64,000 nt of DNA from Thermovirgaceae bacterium (lineage in GTDB: Bacteria > Synergistota > Synergistia > Synergistales > Thermovirgaceae), in NCBI GenBank assembly GCA_040767805.1, contig JAXGNU010000003.1:1-64000 (forward strand). The letters run 5' to 3'. A program made the position numbers and the translations under genes. The notes beneath the pieces were generated by a model. It was not told where the DNA came from, ran no database searches, and saw nothing but the letters and a program-made list of their open reading frames with translations. Positions 30,439-38,812 of the stretch are shown here, in pieces; position 1 is the first letter of the stretch; the number at the start of each line of letters is the position of its first letter.

Positions 30439-31593
30439 TTAAATGTAGCCATCGCTTCTGAGTACTTCTTCGGCTTCCTTGAAGTATCCTGGAGGGGACC
30501 TTGACCACCGGGCCGGTGCATCCCATGGCGGATTCGGCGTAGAGACCCCTTTTCCAAAGAGCCTTGACGGCATCCTCGATGGAGAGGACGTCGACGCCGT
30601 GGATCTCATCTTCGGTGGGCTCCTTGGGAGCATCTTCACCTCTTCGATCCCCTCATGCCTCGACGGGCGAAGATCCGCGAGGATGTCCGAGAGCCGCACC
30701 TTTCCGCGAAAGCAAGGTATTCGGCTACTCTTTCAGGAAGGGACCCGGCCGCCGCCGCCGCGGAAAACAGCAGCGCTCCGGCGATGACCGGGGCACCGGA
30801 AGCCCTCGAAATGATAGAAACGATGAAGGGCCACCCGCTACCGACGGAGGGCCCGTAACCCCACCCCGTAGCCTCGTACCCGCCCCCGGTCGTGAAGGCC
30901 GAGAACATTTTTATGAGCACGTTGCCGGTCAACGTATCGGTGACGCAGACATCGACAGCGCCGGCCAGGATATCGTTGCCCCTTAGAAGCGTCCCGCCGT
31001 CCTTCCTTACGCTGCTCCCGAAGGGGATCGGGAACCCCTTGTCGTGAAGCTTCTGGAGCGCCCTGAAGGCCGTCTGAGCCCCGTCGATGTTCAGGATCCC
31101 CACGGTGGGTTCGGCCAAGCCAAGGGCCTTGGCGGTGGCTATCCCGTAAACCGCGTTCCTGACCATGGCCTCGATCCTGTCAGTGGCGGTGGTGCCGGTC
31201 GTGGAGGCTATGAACATCGGCCTTCCCCGTGCCGGCGTCATAGCCCTACCAATGGTCGTCACCCCCAAGGGGAAGGGTAATGAAGGGCGACGGCCGCGCT
31301 GATATTCCCTTCCTTAAGGGCCGATTCCATGGCCCGGGAGATGTCCCCTCGCAATCGGGCGTTTCGATCCACCTCAACCGGTCAAAACCTTCGATCCTTG
31401 GCCCGATCATCACCACTTCAAGACCCGGCCTTGCTTCCTGGGCCGCGACAGCTCCCCGGGCCAGTTCCTCGGGGCCGAGTTCGCTCCCTGAAGCCATGAG
31501 CCCTACCCTCGTCCGCGGCCCCCCGCTTTTGGCGGACTCCACTATCTCGCGGAGGGCGTCGCCGATGATCCTTCTCGTTTCCGTCCGGTCGGC
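30439..31593 (-). CDS. grdD: Glycine reductase complex C, alpha subunit (PlsX-like); multiply frameshifted, start unresolved
   Basis: Fragments GSELG, HYPFPLGVTTIGR, STTGTT, LLRGND, GWGYGP, SRASGAPV and MGCTGPVV recovered across about 5 single-base indels. Confidence 0.85.
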
Positions 31594-33128
31594 GTGCTGC
31601 CGGCTGTTCCTTCGAAAGGTCCTCCAGGACTTCCAGGAGTATTCCTCGGACCTCCTCCAAAGTGACCCCCCTGGTTTCGCCGGGCTTACCCGAGGAGGGC
31701 TCGATGATAAAGGAAGCGCCGTCGGAGAGGTTGGTCAGCCTGGCCAAGAAGAGGCTCCCCTTCCCGATTATCATGACTCGCCCGTATTTTCCTTCCTTGA
31801 TGGCCTCACAGGCATGGCCGATGAAAGGGACCCCCGAGGGGATATGACCCTGGGTATGGGCGAAACCAGGGATACCCTTGCTCTCGACGAAGGAAGACAT
31901 CTCATCCTTGCCGAGCTCGCCCTTCATGACGGCAAGGGCGGCTATCATCTTGAAGTTGGCCGTCGGCACGTCTCCCGCGCCGGCCGGTACGGTGATCTCC
32001 GGGATCTGGAGTTCGGCGGCGAACTTATCGACGTCGCCGAAGGAAAGCCCTATCTTCTGCAGAGGTTCATAGACCAGCGCCGAGGTGATCGCCGCGGGGA
32101 GGCGCCGGCACCCACCGAGTGTTTCCCGAGGGCATCGAGGCCTCCATGACCGGGCACGTGCCGTCATCTACATCCAGGAGGACGGCGAAGCTCCCGAGAC
32201 AGTCTTCCAGGGCAGGCATGTCCTTCCTGACATGGTCCCGGCTGTTCATGTAAAGTTTTGGAACGGCTCCCCTGCCAGGACTACCACGTTGGGTCTCGCC
32301 CCGCTCGCTACCTGGGTCGCCCCGGCTATCACCGCGTTGACAGGTCCTGCACAAAAACTCCTGATGTCGAAGCCCGAGGCATTCACGCACCCGGCGATCT
32401 CGCAATGGCCTTGGCGAGTTCCCCCCGCCCCGCTGGTTCATGTCGCCCGCGGCTTCCTCGGAGCATTCGATGACGTAGTCGATGTCGGCCGGGGAAAGGC
32501 CGGTGGACTTTAAAAGGTGAAGAAGAGCCAGCACCGATCCTGCCTTGCTGGCAATATTTTCAAGAAGAACGTGCGCGGAGAGTGATTCGTCGAGATCATG
32601 CCCCTTCCTGCAACAACCGGCCACCCTGCCTCGGGAATAAAGTGGAAGGGCACCGTGTTCTTTCGTTTCCTTCTCTATCTCTGAAGAGGCATGACCTTTT
32701 TCCAACCGCGTCAGGATCTTCTCGTTCATGAGCGGGTGCCTGGCCATGACTTCGCGGACTTCACCGGCGAAGGACTCTTCGAGCCAGATAATATCGAAGA
32801 CATCGCAGATATCCATCAAGCCGAGGAACTCCTTCTCGGGCATGATCTCGCCGAATTTGCCGTACCGCGAGGCGCCATCGATCCTGTTACCGTACATCGG
32901 GGCGGGCTGCGCCTTCAGGTCATCCAGGTCCATCCCCCCTATATAGGCTTGGTTGGGGGCGTAGGCACATGCTTCTTCATAGGACTGCATGCTTTTACAC
33001 AGTTTTTTTATGTACTCCGTCTCTCCGTGGGTGATCCTCTCAATGTACGGGGTGACCCCGTAGTGAAGCCCCAGTTCCGGGGTATGGTTTAGGCAATAGG
33101 AATAACCCCTGATAGCGACACGGGCCAT
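31594..33128 (-). CDS. grdC: Glycine reductase complex C, beta subunit; multiply frameshifted, stop unresolved
   Basis: IECSEEAAGDMNQRGGGN, FCAGP, VPKLYMNSRDH, GFAHTQGHIPSG, GKGSLFLARLTNLSDG across about 5 indels. Confidence 0.88.
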
Positions 33129-33195: not shown

Positions 33196-34503
33196 TTAAT
33201 CGTTAAAAACCGTCTGGTCCTCTACGGGCGTCTGGAGAGCCTTGAGGGCTTTCTCCACGATGGCACGCCTGATCTTCTTCTCCTCCTCGGGGGTCTTCGT
33301 CGGGTCCCCCAGGGGGTGAGGGATGGCCACCGCAGGCACGATCCTGTTCGCTCCAACGGTGAGTGAAATGGGCACTATGGTGCAGACGTGGACGACGGGA
33401 AGCCCCGCCCTTTCGATCTCTTTGACGATCGTTGCGCCGCAACGAGTGCAGGTCCCTCAGGTGGAGGTCACTATCACGGCGTCCACGTTGGCGTCCTTGA
33501 GCTTCTGGGCGATCTCCGTCCCAAAACGCCTGGCGTTGCCCACGGAGGTGCCGTTGCCGACGGTCGCATAGAAAGTCTCGTGAAATTTCTTGAAGGCACC
33601 CTCTTTTTCAAGGTCCCGCATCACGTCGACGGGCAGGACCCTGTTGGGATCGTCGTTCGCGTAGGTGGGGTCGTAGCCGCCATGGGCCGTCTCATGGGTC
33701 GAAGAGTTTATTGTCATGACGCCGGCCAGGCTGTATTCTCCGTACTTCGACGCGCTCGATGCCTCGATGTGGTCGGGGTTGCCCTTCGGTACGATGCCGC
33801 CGGAGGTCACGAGGGCGATGGTCGCGCTCTTCATGTCAGCCACCGGCGGGTTGGGAGGCACCCTGTCAAAGGTCGGCATGGGATATTCCGTTGTGAAGGG
33901 CTCTCCCTTGAGCTTCTTCACGAACATATCCACGGCCCTCTCGGCCCCGATCTTGTCCATGAAGAAGTTCACCCTTACGCCTCTTTCGATGTAGCCTTCA
34001 TCATCGGGCTTGCCTATCGGCTCGCCCTTGAGTTGCTTGAGAAGAAGGCGGGCCATGGCAGGAACCGCATCCTTCATGCCCCTGGCGCTGTCAGCTGTTC
34101 TGGCGATGTAGGTCGACTTACGGTACATGTCAACGCCGGGGTTCTCCTCGTACATACCCGACACGGTCGGTAGACCGAGGTTCTTCCTGACCGCTTCGCA
34201 GACGGCGCCGCAGGCGGTGCCGTAACGGCCGGCGTTGAAGGCCGGCCCGGCGACGACCGCGTCGGGAGAAAAGGACGCGATCAGGTCCAGGACCTCCTTC
34301 TCAGCCTTTTCAAGGTTATCGGCGAAGTAGGTGTCCCCGCAGATCACCGTTCCCACGATCTCCGCGTCAGGGGCTAAGGCCGCGTTAAAGGCTTGGCCGG
34401 GTCCTACGAAACCCTTCCTGGATTCCGGCTTATGGCCAGCCATCTCTTCACCGCCGATGCCTGCGAAGAACTGGTTGATATAATGGACTACCTTGTACTT
34501 CAT
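33196..34503 (-). CDS. grdB: Glycine reductase selenoprotein B (Sec at UGA 33457-33459)
   Basis: HYINQFFAGIGGEE N-terminus; in-frame TGA gives TST-U-GTCTRC and the frame stays open to TAA at 33196; hairpin CGTTGC-GGC-GCAACG 12 nt after the UGA. Confidence 0.96.
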
Positions 34504-34537
34504 ATGATCATTTCCCCCCTTTCTTCGGGGCTGCCCT

Positions 34538-35014
34538 CTAGAGGGTGTACTTCCCGTACTGTTCACGAACTCCCTTGACGGCGTTGGCGAGGCTCTCGGT
34601 CTCGAGCACCATCTCCATCATGCCGATCTGGTCGGCCCATACCGACGGGTCGGCCTCGTCCCGGATCTCCTGTTCGAAAACGTGGTATACCGCGAGTCCC
34701 AACGGGACTCCTGCCAGGGGACCTGCGAAGGTGGGATCGCCGTTGGTCACCGTTTCCGCGTAGATTTCGGCTCCCTCGGCATCGGAGGAACCCAGGATCA
34801 CTACCAGGTTCTCCGCCCCGTACTTCTCAGCCGCGTCCTTGACGCGCTGCTGGTTCTGCAGGTCCATGGCTCCCGCGGCGGTTCAGACGAAGCACTCCGT
34901 CACGGAGAAGACGATATCCCCCCCGCAATTCTTCAGGCTTTCCTCCATGGCGGGGGCGGCCACTCCATCCCTCTCGCCCAGAAGGAGCACCTTCTTGCCA
35001 GCGAGTTTGCCCAA
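34538..35014 (-). CDS. grdA: Glycine reductase selenoprotein A (Sec44, UGA at 34883-34885)
   Basis: TTG start after [39 protein letters not shown]; 158 aa. Confidence 0.96.
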
Positions 35015-35057
35015 ATCAGGCACCTCCTTTAAAGTCAAAGATTTTTAGTGCTGATAC

Positions 35058-36344
35058 CTAGATAGTGTAGGCGCCGATCCGGCTGAAGCCGAGTTCGCTG
35101 GTCGCCCCGGTTATCGCCTGGATCTCCACCTCGATGGAACCGTCCTCCCTCAGGGAACCCTGGAAACCCCCGGCGATCACATTGGCCGTGTCGGGGAGCC
35201 CAATGATCCTCTCCATCCTTGGCAGCACGATGATCTCGTTGGCGTTGGCCGCCGTAACGACGGCATCGGCTTCGGGACAGGCGTCGGCCAGGGACTGGCT
35301 GGCCCCGTCCCTGCCCGCGTATTCGTCGGTTACCAGGACGGTCTTGATCCCGCCCTGTTCAGCATTGCGGCAGTTCATGATCAGGTCCGTATCGGGGTTG
35401 CCGAAACCTTCCTCGCTGATGATCACGCCTTCGACACCAAGCATCTTGGCCAGTTTCACGGCATAGGAGGAACTGCGCTTCTTGTCGGCGAGGGTGGTAT
35501 TCTCGTTGGTGATGACGCAGCCGACGAAGTTGAAATCCTTGCCGTGCCTTTTGTACATGTGCTGGATTATTGGGTTGTTCTGGTGAGAATAGGTATTGTT
35601 CTTGTCACAGGCGGAAACACAGTTACCGGAGACGATCGCCCCGTCCATGACCTCGTTGGGGTGAATTAGGGTAGGGATGATCCTCTTGGCATCGACACCG
35701 TAGACATAGGTATCGTGTAGAAGCCCCTGGGACTGCAGCATGTACAGGTAGGCCACCTTCGGGAGCCCCGGGAAGGACGTCATGGCCTTGGCGAGGTCCG
35801 GCAGGCAATAGCTTTCGACCTCTCCCCCGGTCGCGCCCTTGGCGGCAGCCGCTAGGTAGTGTGCCGTCTTCAGGCCGGCGAGCCGGCAAGCGGACTCGTA
35901 TTCGTGCTTTTCCAGGCCTTCGACGGGTTCGACGACCAGCACCACGTTGAGGGTCTTGGAAAAGGGCGTGTATTCCGCTCCCGGACCCGACATGTCGATG
36001 ATGCCTTCCTGGAAACCCACGATCTTCCCGCAGGTTACCACGGCGGCGCCGCTTAGGACGAGGGTGATGCCTTCACCCACCGTCTCAACGTCACCGATAA
36101 AGCCCGGGAACACCTCTCCAGGCCCTTCAAGTTTGCACCTCGGCTCCACCACGTCCTTGACCGGCAGGATTCTAGTGCTCTCCCCCGGCAAGGCAAGCTC
36201 AACCTTGGCGCTGGAGAACCTCTGGTCCTTCATCACCATGTCGACGATCTCACGTCGGTTCACCCTTAAAACCCCGTCTTTGAAGGAAGTCTTGTCTCCG
36301 TCCAGAAGGGACTTTACGGCTACTCTCTTGAGTTTAAGTTCCAA
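35058..36344 (-). CDS. grdE: Glycine reductase component B alpha/beta proprotein
   Basis: PVKDVVEPR, GIIDMSGPGA, GNCVSACDKN, EEGFGNPDTD; operon position. Confidence 0.93.
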   Translation of the reverse strand: MELKLKRVAVKSLLDGDKTSFKDGVLRVNRREIVDMVMKDQRFSSAKVELALPGESTRILPVKDVVEPRCKLEGPGEVFPGFIGDVETVGEGITLVLSGAAVVTCGKIVGFQEGIIDMSGPGAEYTPFSKTLNVVLVVEPVEGLEKHEYESACRLAGLKTAHYLAAAAKGATGGEVESYCLPDLAKAMTSFPGLPKVAYLYMLQSQGLLHDTYVYGVDAKRIIPTLIHPNEVMDGAIVSGNCVSACDKNNTYSHQNNPIIQHMYKRHGKDFNFVGCVITNENTTLADKKRSSSYAVKLAKMLGVEGVIISEEGFGNPDTDLIMNCRNAEQGGIKTVLVTDEYAGRDGASQSLADACPEADAVVTAANANEIIVLPRMERIIGLPDTANVIAGGFQGSLREDGSIEVEIQAITGATSELGFSRIGAYTI

Positions 36345-36375
36345 TTAAGTTTCCCCCCTTTCGAATAACCCATCG

Positions 36376-36699
36376 CTATTCGGCCCACTCCTTTACCCTC
36401 TCCTCGATCTTTTCAGCCACTGCCTCGGCTCCACTCAGCCTGGGGCCGTCCTCCTTCCCTCCCTTGTAGAACAGGAAGGTCGGCACCCCCATGACTCTGA
36501 GGGATATGACGAGCTTGCGGTTCTCGGCGACGTTGAGCTTGCAGAACTTGACCTTGCCCTCGTATTTGCGGGAGATCTCCTCCACCTTCGGCATCAGCGC
36601 CAGGCAAGGGCCGCACTGCGGACCCCAAAGGTCAACCAGCACAGGAAGGTCGCTCTTCAGGACCTCTTCTTCGAAGTTTTCCTTGTTCAATTCGATCAT
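36376..36699 (-). CDS. trxA: Thioredoxin of the glycine reductase operon
   Basis: WGPQCGPC active site, VMGVPT; 107 aa. Confidence 0.92.
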   Translation of the reverse strand: MIELNKENFEEEVLKSDLPVLVDLWGPQCGPCLALMPKVEEISRKYEGKVKFCKLNVAENRKLVISLRVMGVPTFLFYKGGKEDGPRLSGAEAVAEKIEERVKEWAE

Positions 36700-37160
36700 C
36701 TTTTCACCTCCCTTCGGTTTTCTCCGCCCTTCGGGGTTTGACGGGTGCTCCCGGGTCCATCACAGGCGCCGCCTTTAAGCAAACCGTATCTCTCCATGCT
36801 GTCCTGCAGCAGGTATACATCAAGGGCGGCAAAGTCCTCCAGGTGGCGGTTTTCCACGGCGGGCTTCACGGGGTGAACACCCTCCGCCCTGTAAAGATCG
36901 ATGGCTCTCTCGAGAATGGAAAGCGATCCAAGGTCGATGCCCCTTTTTTCGTCGGGCAGTCCGACGAGGACGCTCCTGAAGTGTTGCTGGGAGGGCTGGA
37001 TGTTCCCATAAAGGGGATGGGTCAAAAGCAGCCACCCGGCATGGACGCGATCTCTCGCAAGGGTCAGCACGTTAAGGGGGCCACCCTCAACGAAGGTGGC
37101 TTTCAGTGAGAGGTCTCAAAGCCGGGCGTTATTCGTGAGGCAGTCGATCTCCTGGAACAC
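36696..37160 (-). CDS. grdX: GrdX family protein with in-frame UGA at codon 15 (candidate selenocysteine)
   Basis: GTG at 37160 after AGGGGG; reads MFQEIDCLTNNARL-TGA-DLSLKATFVEGGPLNVLTLARDRVHAGWLLLTHPLYGN; TNN and LLTHPL motifs of GrdX; first gene of the grd operon. Confidence 0.8.
37080..37100 (-). promoter_or_regulatory. SECIS-like hairpin inside grdX
   Basis: GCCACCUUC-GUU-GAGGGUGGC 9-bp stem (one G-U pair) starting 15 nt after the UGA; loop begins with GU. Confidence 0.65.
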
Positions 37161-37162
37161 TG

Positions 37163-37191
37163 AAAAACCCCCTATTCATTGAATAGGTGGG
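37163..37191 (-). terminator. Riboswitch expression-platform hairpin (terminator or SD sequestrator)
   Basis: CCTATTC-AAT-GAATAGG stem plus TTTTT; the 3' arm overlaps the grdX SD. Confidence 0.55.
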
Positions 37192-37374
37192 TCCTCTGTC
37201 CAGAAATTCTCCTACGGGAGGACACTGACGCCGAAAGGGCCTCCCGCGCCTGTCCAGAGACTTGTCCGGCCGCAATCCTTTGGCCTGAGAGTTTCGCGAT
37301 CCTGTCGATCGCTTGCCCCTTCGGCTCCCCCGCTCGAGGGAAAAGCACGGGGGTATCTCTTGCGGCCTTCATCC
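37191..37374 (-). promoter_or_regulatory. Glycine riboswitch (one complete aptamer plus a degenerate second domain)
   Basis: GGATGAA-GGCCGCAAGAGA...GCCGAAGGGGCAA...AAACTCTCAGG..AAAGGATTGCGGCC then CTCTGGA...GGACAGAG; upstream of the grd operon. Confidence 0.85.
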
Positions 37375-37389
37375 AAAAATTCCTTGTTG

Positions 37390-37418
37390 ATTTTCTCATG
37401 ATGAAAGGGAAAGGTCAA
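37390..37418 (-). promoter_or_regulatory. Putative promoter of the grd operon
   Basis: TTGACC-17 nt-GAAAAT just upstream of the riboswitch. Confidence 0.45.
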
Positions 37419-37428
37419 CGAGGCGGTG

Positions 37429-37456
37429 AAAAAAGCGGGGGCTTCAAGCCCCCGCC
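37429..37456 (-). terminator. Intrinsic terminator after the NSS transporter
   Basis: GCGGGGGCT-TGA-AGCCCCCGC plus TTTTTT on the minus strand. Confidence 0.8.
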
Positions 37457-37483
37457 GGGTCAAAGACGAAATAGAGGCGGTTC

Positions 37484-38812
37484 TTACCACTTGAGCCCCG
37501 TGATGAAGATATAGGCTATGGCGATCGGGGCCACGACGCGGCATGCCCATAGCCAGACCGTGTAAAGGCCGAAGGGTACCGTGCCGTCGTTCGTGACTTC
37601 CTGCTTCGCGCCCTCGGTCCAGAACCAGCCCACGAAGAGGGCTATGAACAGGCCCCCGAGGGGGAGAAGGATGTTGGAAGCCAGGAAGTCGGCGGAATCA
37701 AGGAAATCCCTTCCCGCAAGGGTGGGGAGCTTCCCGGCGACGCCCAACACGGAAGGGATCCCCAGCAGGAAGATGCAAAAACCCATGAGCCAGGAGGCCT
37801 TGGTCCTGCTCCACTTCATCTCGTCGATGAAATAGGCGGAAACGACTTCCAGCAAGGAGATGGCCGATGTGAGGGCGGCGACAAAGAGCAGAACGAAGAA
37901 CAGTGCCGACCAGATCATCCCCCCGGGCATCTTCCCGAAGACGTTGGGAAGGGTTATGAAGGTGAGCCCCGCACCGGCGCCGGGTTCGATACCGAAAGCG
38001 AAGACGGCGGGAAAGATGACGAGGCCCGCCAGGAAGGCGACGGCGGTGTCAATGAAGCAGACCTGGAAGGCCGCACCGGGAAGGGTCTCCTTCTTACCCA
38101 CGTAACTGCCGTAGGTGATCATGCACCCCATGCCCAGGGAGAGTGAAAAGAAGGCCTGGCCGAGGGCCGCCCCGAAGGCGCCGCCGGTCAACTTGCTGAA
38201 GTCTGGTTTAAGGTAGTAGGCGATGCCGGCGCCGGCGCCGGGAAGCGTCACGGCTCGGACGATCAGGATGAGCAGTACGACGAAGAGGGAGGGCATGAGG
38301 ATCCTGCAGTACTTCTCGATCCCTTCGCCGATTCCTTTATAGATAATGTAGATGGTGACGAACATGAAAAAGGCCTGCCAGGCTATCACGAGGGGTACGT
38401 TGGTCACGAAGGAACCGAAGGCCTCCCCGGCGTCGGCCTGCATAAGCCCGGTGAAGGATTTGAGCACGTAGGCCATGGTCCAGCCGCCGATGACCCCGTA
38501 GTAGGAGAGAATGATGAAGCCGGCGATTACCCCCATCCAGCCCACGATGGGCCACGCCCCGCCCTTGGTCTTTCGAAAGGCCCCGACGGCGTTAAGCTGA
38601 GAGTTGCGGCCGATGGCCATTTCGGCGAGCATGACGGAGAACCCGATAACGAAGACAAGGATCACATAGATCAGGACAAAGGCCGCCCCTCCATGCAGAC
38701 CGGTGATGTAAGGGAAACGCCAGATGTTCCCCAGGCCCACCGCGGAGCCAGCGCAGGCAAGGATGTAACCCCACCTGGTACCCCACTGTTCGCGTTGCGT
38801 CTCGTTGCTCAT
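37484..38812 (-). CDS. Sodium-dependent amino acid transporter (NSS/SNF family)
   Basis: REQW, AGSAVGLGNIWRFPY, QAFFSLSLG. Confidence 0.92.
   Translation of the reverse strand: MSNETQREQWGTRWGYILACAGSAVGLGNIWRFPYITGLHGGAAFVLIYVILVFVIGFSVMLAEMAIGRNSQLNAVGAFRKTKGGAWPIVGWMGVIAGFIILSYYGVIGGWTMAYVLKSFTGLMQADAGEAFGSFVTNVPLVIAWQAFFMFVTIYIIYKGIGEGIEKYCRILMPSLFVVLLILIVRAVTLPGAGAGIAYYLKPDFSKLTGGAFGAALGQAFFSLSLGMGCMITYGSYVGKKETLPGAAFQVCFIDTAVAFLAGLVIFPAVFAFGIEPGAGAGLTFITLPNVFGKMPGGMIWSALFFVLLFVAALTSAISLLEVVSAYFIDEMKWSRTKASWLMGFCIFLLGIPSVLGVAGKLPTLAGRDFLDSADFLASNILLPLGGLFIALFVGWFWTEGAKQEVTNDGTVPFGLYTVWLWACRVVAPIAIAYIFITGLKW

Follow-up and report, generated by a model that had tools for sequence, protein, structure and literature searches.

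An in-frame UGA followed by a SECIS-like hairpin suggests that grdX is a third selenoprotein gene of a Synergistota glycine reductase operon

Glycine reductase is a classic selenium enzyme, and its operon has long been studied with two selenoproteins, GrdA and GrdB, whose selenocysteine (Sec) chemistry is known. Here we analyzed a stretch of 64,000 nucleotides from a sludge-dwelling Thermovirgaceae bacterium of the Synergistota (assembly GCA_040767805.1, contig JAXGNU010000003.1, positions 1 to 64,000 of the forward strand; hereafter the window), and in particular grdX, the first gene of a glycine reductase cluster on the minus strand. The gene (36696..37160; GTG start, 154 sense codons, TGA stop) carries an in-frame UGA as codon 15 (37116..37118, minus strand), the proposed Sec codon, which is the same codon across orthologues and metagenome contigs. 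A hairpin that resembles a bacterial selenocysteine insertion sequence (SECIS) follows it. We propose, at a probability of roughly 0.8, that grdX is a selenoprotein gene: Sec would be inserted at codon 15 in a SelB-dependent manner, and the product would be a full-length GrdX with a thiol/selenol site near Cys7. An earlier note, made from the letters of the window alone, had put GrdX forward as a candidate third selenoprotein of the operon beside GrdA and GrdB. This suggestion is strengthened by the conserved UGA, by a constrained hairpin, by the presence of tRNA-Sec, selA, selB and selD in the genome, and by a family profile match that runs across the TGA.

The frame that begins with the GTG at 37160-37158, 7 nt past a Shine-Dalgarno-like GGGGG run, is open up to the TGA at 36698-36696, except for the single TGA at 37118-37116. 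The earlier note had extended the gene in this manner from a shorter open reading frame (ORF) starting at GTG 37070, thereby regaining an N-terminal TNN motif, and its coordinates proved exact. The read-through protein matched the NCBIfam GrdX profile NF038093 over profile positions 3-118 of 119 with 85.6 bits, exceeding the curated cut-off of 40 bits, whereas the ORF from GTG 37070 matched positions 28-118 only, with 73.4 bits. Read-through gains about 25 profile positions, 12 bits and the TNN motif relative to the shorter form. Since the match widens from 28-118 to 3-118 upon read-through, homologous coding is found on both sides of the TGA. A search of the Pfam library returned no family for either protein form, although precomputed tables do name PF28011.

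The choice of start codon was examined in the relatives. A GTG start is present in all 27 clade sequences, and two database relatives (P0010 and P0011) have a methionine aligned to GTG 37160, which supports this start. The GTG at 37070 (codon 31), from which the shorter form would be translated, is GTA or GTT in six of nine orthologues; it is not a conserved start, and a re-initiated, truncated GrdX is therefore no conserved product. The database proteins of the TGA forms are nonetheless annotated from downstream starts and have 85-124 residues. Because gene callers truncate every TGA form in this way, the clade is systematically mis-annotated.

The window belongs to a metagenome-assembled Synergistota genome with Thermovirgaceae-like relatives. 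To learn how far the UGA is conserved, we surveyed 19 genomes of its family, 18 of which have GrdX. A grdX with an in-frame TGA was found in nine of the 19 (G000-G005, G007, G008 and G012), belonging to four genera, and their proteins are as little as 56% identical. All nine orthologues have the TGA as codon 15, within an N-terminus of the form VFQEI(E/D)CLTNNA.LU, where U stands for the proposed Sec. Metagenome contigs were then scanned with a DNA pattern made from codons 1-12 only, so that neither codon 15 nor the hairpin could influence which contigs were picked up; 18 contigs were returned, with TGA in 17 and TGG in one. Two DNA runs, which belong to different studies and may be the source samples of the window, gave contigs that match it without a difference over 36300-37500, and one RNA-library contig (37077-37270, 0 differences) covers part of the leader together with the start codon and the TGA. 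RNA contigs cover only parts of the stretch, and their gaps are uninformative. The DNA-run contigs and the RNA-library contig all carry the TGA. The same codon in 9/9 orthologues and 17/18 metagenome contigs shows that the TGA is no sequencing error.

The SECIS-like hairpin (37080..37100, minus strand) consists of a 9-bp stem and a GUU loop at 37091-37089, with the loop 24 nt past the UGA; its arms, GCCACCUUC (37100-37092) and GAGGGUGGC (37088-37080), form nine pairs including one G-U. Stem length, loop, position and distance agree exactly with those first given for it. In the sections of a 2026 review that deal with the bacterial SECIS (PMC13188914), the consensus is a stem of 4-16 bp capped by a loop of 3-9 nt, with a UGA-loop distance of 16-37 nt and a minimum free energy (MFE) of <= -7.5 kcal/mol, and the loop has a G within its first two positions, mostly as GG or GU. 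The grdX hairpin satisfies all the rules given in those sections, with its GUU loop, 9 bp, 24 nt and -17.5 kcal/mol for the 59-nt stretch. By chance, 352 of the 47,502 TGA triplets of the genome (0.74%, both strands) are followed by a hairpin that is as good or better by the same geometric criteria.

Comparison of relatives indicates that this hairpin is under constraint as RNA. In 18 distinct clade sequences, codon entropy was 0.31 at each of the four-fold codons T22, V24 and G26 within the hairpin. Other invariant four-fold codons among the first 69 had values of 0.5-1.99, and in this by-eye comparison the hairpin codons were the lowest. The loop codon GTT, with a U in the third position, is kept in 17 of the 18 sequences. 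Over 14 sequences pairing was found in 96% of cells, and a compensatory change was seen at two pairs (from G-C to A-U at one, from A-U to U-A at the other). The covariation score of 0.161, compared with 0.117 in shuffles, was reached by only 5 of 500 of them. A genome-wide list of TGA codons with strong hairpins was also drawn up and set aside: it consists mostly of open frames in non-coding registers of this GC-rich genome, and was of no use for defining a SelB motif. One TGA-plus-hairpin context recurs in it at four places (G000:C9:13164, C2:161367, C7:32112 and C5:48275, where G000 is the genome of the window), each time with the same open frame of about 445 codons behind it (104 at C5), and is probably a repeated mobile element.

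The distribution of Sec and Cys was analyzed in 268 Synergistota genomes, 194 of which have GrdX; 150 of the 310 matches were listed, and the lineage counts are lower bounds. An in-frame TGA at other N-terminal codons of grdX was found in at least three further lineages, two genera (g13 and g17) and a single genome (G205). In g13 (at least eight genomes) the U is at TNN+13, counted from the T, with a 9-bp hairpin and a GGG loop 19 nt downstream; a UxxC motif is present in three of the eight g13 rows among the matches listed. In g17 (3/3 among the matches listed) the U is at TNN+14, with an 8-bp hairpin and a GU(U/C/G) loop 21 nt downstream. In G205 the TGA precedes TNN by two codons, with a 7-bp hairpin and a GGCG loop 21 nt downstream. 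This is the column of the window's Cys7 (codon TGC, 37140..37142, minus strand), which lies in strand beta-1 and is invariant in the clade, and all four genus-mates of G205 that were examined (genus g50) have TGT or TGC at the codon in question. In the window's numbering the Sec columns of the four lineages are 7, 15, 22 and 23, all within the first 23 residues.

The association between hairpin and TGA was measured in 68 distinct Synergistota rows (among the matches listed), with a hairpin score of at least 7 counted as positive. In the register of the window a hairpin was present at 13 of 14 TGA rows versus 5 of 54 non-TGA rows; in a second register the figures were 7/7 versus 9/61, and in a third 3/3 versus 13/65. 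The positives that lack a TGA include a sister locus discussed below (L010), the TGG variant, and rows with a UGA element of their own later in range. Two TGA-free loci (L128 and L129, in G203 and G204) have a strong hairpin, with a score of 9.5, about 40-60 nt past the TNN codons, which is the SECIS register of other genera.

Cysteine is found at the window's U column (TNNxxLC) in 11 of the 68 rows, read in an ungapped register between TNN and HPL among the matches listed, and these rows often have a second Cys six residues on. Across the whole family, 132 GrdX representatives at 50% identity have Cys once at column 15, 19 times at column 7 and 14 times at column 21. From these alignments, the segment from beta-1 to beta-2 around the invariant TNN loop of Synergistota GrdX repeatedly carries Cys or predicted Sec.

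In an AlphaFold2 model of GrdX, with a predicted local distance difference test (pLDDT) score of 92.2, Cys7 is in strand 2-9, Sec15 in a short helix of residues 12-17, and the Sec columns of g13 and g17 in strand 21-23. Cys7, Sec15 and the other Sec columns may be close in space in the folded protein. Foldseek gave no match in the PDB at E <= 0.001 (best 0.27), and in a wide VIA-align search the best Z was 3.5, with no solved structure resembling the GrdX fold.

These observations can be assembled into a mechanism. Translation would start at GTG 37160, directly past the expression platform of a glycine riboswitch; SelB with Sec-tRNA(Sec) would bind the hairpin at 37100-37080, and Sec would be inserted at the UGA of codon 15 to give a full-length GrdX of 154 residues. 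When Sec-tRNA is not available, a 14-residue peptide would be made, with no conserved downstream start to rescue the remainder. Sec15 would sit in the short helix past the invariant TNN loop, with Cys7 near in sequence, and the two residues may be partners. Because the N-terminal region of Synergistota GrdX bears Cys or Sec at several alternative positions, we infer that Sec15 belongs to a thiol/selenol site, redox-active or selenium/sulfur-carrying, on an accessory protein of glycine reductase.

Several findings weigh against this proposal. With respect to the RNA, the energy of the short fold has a z of -1.98, and 11 of 200 shuffles folded equally well; by our reading of the codons, the peptide ATFVEGG alone fixes five of the nine pairs. 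In a search with the Rfam SECIS models (SECIS_1-5), none matched grdX, whether 16 kb were scanned at E <= 1 or 126 nt at E <= 10. SECIS models are gene-specific, and the Rfam miss therefore says little about function; SECIS_4, the one model that matches here, at grdB, is nearly a grdB sequence profile. In a fold of 201 nt the MFE prefers a competing pairing. The competing hairpin, CGUUGAGGG/CCCUUAACG, was ruled out, as codons 28-30, which it involves, vary among orthologues. A TGA-less sister (L010, in genome G006), which has Arg at column 15, keeps the hairpin in the same place as the window, with compensatory changes (G006:C157 1549-1569; 8 bp, GUA loop). In L010 the hairpin is either older than the UGA, a remnant of a Sec codon since lost, or a structure with another role.

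With respect to the protein, the nearest sense-codon relatives, which share the N-terminus MFQEIECLTNN, read W, K, L, S, L and L at column 15 and never Cys. The alignment of relatives that the earlier note had called for agrees with a Sec codon in having TGA at one and the same codon in nine of nine orthologues and Cys at this column elsewhere in the phylum, but not in the residues of the closest sense forms. The TGG (W) form is nested among the TGA forms with support of 100/99; the K, L and S forms are not resolved from the TGA forms in the tree, and TGG is the single loss that could be placed. The sense residues and the nested TGG indicate that Sec is dispensable here, and a Cys at column 15 in only one of the 132 representatives indicates that this is no universal catalytic position. 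Finally, the rows are kin and not independent, so that the four Sec lineages represent only about four events, which are few.

The gene stands at the head of the glycine reductase cluster. Upstream, on the minus strand, are a strong terminator of the preceding transporter gene (37456-37434), a promoter-like site (37418-37390) and a glycine riboswitch-like aptamer (37192..37376; Rfam RF03166, glycine-GGAnGA, 79.2 bits, E 2.2e-15), the score of which falls below the gathering score of the model (110). A glycine riboswitch element was found upstream of grdX in 9/9 other loci tested, including both other Sec genera and L010. Between the aptamer and the start codon is a terminator-like hairpin, CCTATTC/GAATAGG followed by a T-run (37163..37187, minus strand; stem 37187-37171, tail GGGTTTTTCA), which holds the GGGGG run and is the probable expression platform of the riboswitch.

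The order of the cluster is grdX-trxA-grdE-grdA(U)-grdB(U)-grdC-grdD, followed by an amino-acid carrier and an alanine racemase. The thioredoxin gene trxA (36376..36699, minus strand) matches NF047697 with 121 bits, and TIGR01068. It is followed on the same strand by a gene for a grdE/grdG-type component B alpha proprotein (35058..36344; NF040793, 590.7 bits, below the cut-off of 780), by grdA for selenoprotein A (34538..35038; UGA at 34885-34883; NF040748, 251 bits) and by grdB for selenoprotein B (33196..34566; UGA at 33459-33457; TIGR01917, 673.7 bits). The grdB SECIS (33456-33419, minus strand) matches Rfam SECIS_4 with 52.3 bits against a gathering score of 38, and has a stem of 6-7 bp with a GGC triloop 18 nt past the UGA. 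The grdC and grdD genes are in pieces (window 30470-33128, minus strand). The beta subunit gene grdC is split into 33128-32067 (profile 2-234) and 32167-31418 (profile 342-475), and the alpha subunit gene grdD into four stretches in different frames (31575-31354, 31351-31259, 31277-30690 and 30637-30470), either by frameshifts from assembly errors or by real decay.

The grdX stop and the trx ATG overlap as ATGA at 36699-36696. This overlap, on which a coupling of the two genes had been built in the earlier note, is present in the window but is not conserved: of 27 sequences, two show it, namely the window and a metagenome contig identical to it (L071), and in the remaining 25 a spacer of 46-69 nt separates the two genes. 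In most loci, the window among them, trx is preceded by a GAAGGGAGG ribosome-binding site. The window GrdX also has a C-terminal tail of 24 residues that is absent in relatives (36696-36770, minus strand). The gene lacks the stop that is usually found near codon 130 and stays open across what was the grdX-trx spacer, in which the trx ribosome-binding site lies; tail and overlap are found only in the window and L071.

The genome contains the machinery for Sec: tRNA-Sec (77.5 bits), selB (338 bits), selA (569 bits) and two copies of selD, all above their cut-offs. One selD copy (G000:C5:30458-31390, minus strand) has a single in-frame TGA, and the SelD that it encodes probably contains Sec, as judged from its sequence; the TGA-free copy is at C3:158372-159280. 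A match to an EF-Tu/SelB-like GTPase (G000:C4:19820-21049, minus strand; 194 bits to selB profile positions 2-357) has one TGA in a 457-codon open frame. Three more GrdX-family paralogues, all without a TGA, were found in the genome of the window (G000:C5:125604-125939, C2:180222-180551 and C13:10990-11325). They adjoin no grd genes, and their neighbors include a branched-chain amino-acid carrier, an acyl-CoA ligase and unassigned proteins, from which it follows that GrdX-like proteins also work outside glycine reductase operons.

The alternative that fares best is compatible with a selenoprotein, and holds that the UGA has been retained mainly for sensing selenium, with the nature of the inserted residue of secondary importance. 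When Sec-tRNA is scarce, ribosomes would stop at codon 15 and leave about 420 nt of leader-proximal mRNA bare, and expression of trx-grdE-grdA-grdB would fall through polarity or decay. Combined with the glycine riboswitch, the checkpoint would work as an AND gate: the grd mRNA would be fully loaded with ribosomes only if glycine and charged Sec-tRNA were both available. It is known that in leader-peptide attenuation of the trp/his type the supply of charged tRNA sets the expression of the downstream operon. The proposed checkpoint would resemble this in that an early codon needs a scarce aminoacyl-tRNA and the operon uses the same resource. The variable nature of the column throughout the family, and the W, K, L and S of the nearest sense-codon relatives, are what would be expected of a replaceable residue. 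The UGA occurs at four different early codons in four lineages, in a gene that is first behind a glycine riboswitch in every locus tested. Within the window genome, only the grdX of the grd operon has the TGA, and the three paralogues elsewhere do not. It may also be argued that the TGA has been kept over four genera although 8 of the 9 single-base changes would give a sense codon.

Against such a checkpoint, the grdX-trx overlap is restricted to two of the 27 sequences, and trx has a strong ribosome-binding site of its own. Two of the four Sec columns have Cys counterparts, which together with the UxxC of g13 are the signature of a chemically used Sec. The sensor had rested on the premise that no Cys counterpart exists, and this premise fails at the level of the phylum: Cys occupies the same column in 11 of the 68 rows, and G205 has a TGA where its four genus-mates that were examined have Cys. 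Sense-codon variants persist, which means that the gate is not required. The system also differs from trp/his attenuation, as the fold and terminator analysis of the locus found no alternative RNA structure or terminator/antiterminator pairing that ties UGA decoding to the terminator, the grdX 'leader' is the N-terminus of a conserved protein, and its coupling to trx is not conserved. We consider it unlikely that the UGA serves primarily as a sensor, and as a conserved design the checkpoint is not supported, given the rare overlap, the separate ribosome-binding site of trx and the Cys counterparts. Some effect of selenium on ribosome traffic over the first cistron would follow from any early Sec codon.

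It is also conceivable, but highly improbable, that the UGA is a leaky stop, decoded at a low rate and independently of SelB by a near-cognate tRNA for Trp or Cys, so that GrdX is kept low, and that the hairpin acts in mRNA stability or pausing. The natural TGG (Trp) variant inside the clade and the similar hairpin in TGA-less L010 would fit such a role. The geometry and the G-first loop, which agree with the SECIS rules in all four lineages, do not, nor does the third-position U of the loop codon, kept in all but one of 18 sequences; hairpins are strongly associated with TGA rows, and a full Sec machinery is present with two other Sec genes in the same operon. That the UGA is a real stop, ending a 14-residue leader peptide ahead of an N-truncated GrdX from a downstream start or marking a decaying gene, is scarcely credible: all database proteins of TGA forms are indeed called from downstream starts, and the fragmented grdC/grdD do point to some decay or assembly error in the operon, but no start past the TGA is conserved (codon 31 being the case in point), codons 16-30 are in frame and encode a conserved protein sequence that fits the GrdX profile, the truncated product would lack the invariant TNN motif, and the TGA codon is conserved over four genera and many samples.

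A selenoprotein GrdX would share its operon and decoding logic with GrdA and GrdB. The G-first triloop of grdB lies 18 nt past its UGA, and the GUU triloop of grdX 24 nt; the stems have 6-7 bp and 9 bp, respectively. The table of the 2026 review gives Sec of GrdA and GrdB in fixed CxxU and UxxC motifs (PMC13188914). In contrast, the predicted Sec of GrdX is at four lineage-specific positions, that of the window is in no CxxU motif, and the grdX hairpin has no Rfam model, unlike that of grdB (SECIS_4). The window protein is a member of the GrdX family (NF038093, PF28011; Clostridia, Brachyspira, Synergistota) by its score above the cut-off and by its place as the first gene of a grd cluster, a place that grdX also has in the gene clusters shown for C. 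sticklandii and Brachyspira (PMC2897892) and for Cloacibacillus (PMC10838667). The GrdX proteins described are ordinary, and in 131 of the 132 representatives this site shows no Cys and no gap-free Sec column, unlike the window GrdX. A full-text literature search for GrdX together with selenoprotein or selenocysteine found no paper that calls GrdX a selenoprotein, judging from the passages on GrdX in 10.1101/2022.07.06.499078, PMC10838667 and PMC2897892, and the main text of the 2026 review of selenoproteomes makes no mention of GrdX, NF038093 or PF28011 (PMC13188914).

If the checkpoint were true after all, the 21st amino acid would serve in a gate akin to attenuation. If the selenoprotein reading is correct, the operon would have a third Sec-containing product, and GrdX would be an added family in the prokaryotic selenoproteome. 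Its evolution would be unusual, with four separate Sec positions in one small protein and with close relatives that would have lost Sec to Trp, Leu, Ser or Lys, and grdX, together with the hairpin retained in its TGA-less sister, would be a good natural system in which to follow the gain and loss of bacterial SECIS elements and Sec codons. The recruitment of Cys or Sec around the TNN loop would also be a first chemical hint on GrdX: it points to a thiol/selenol site, which may work with thioredoxin or GrdA.

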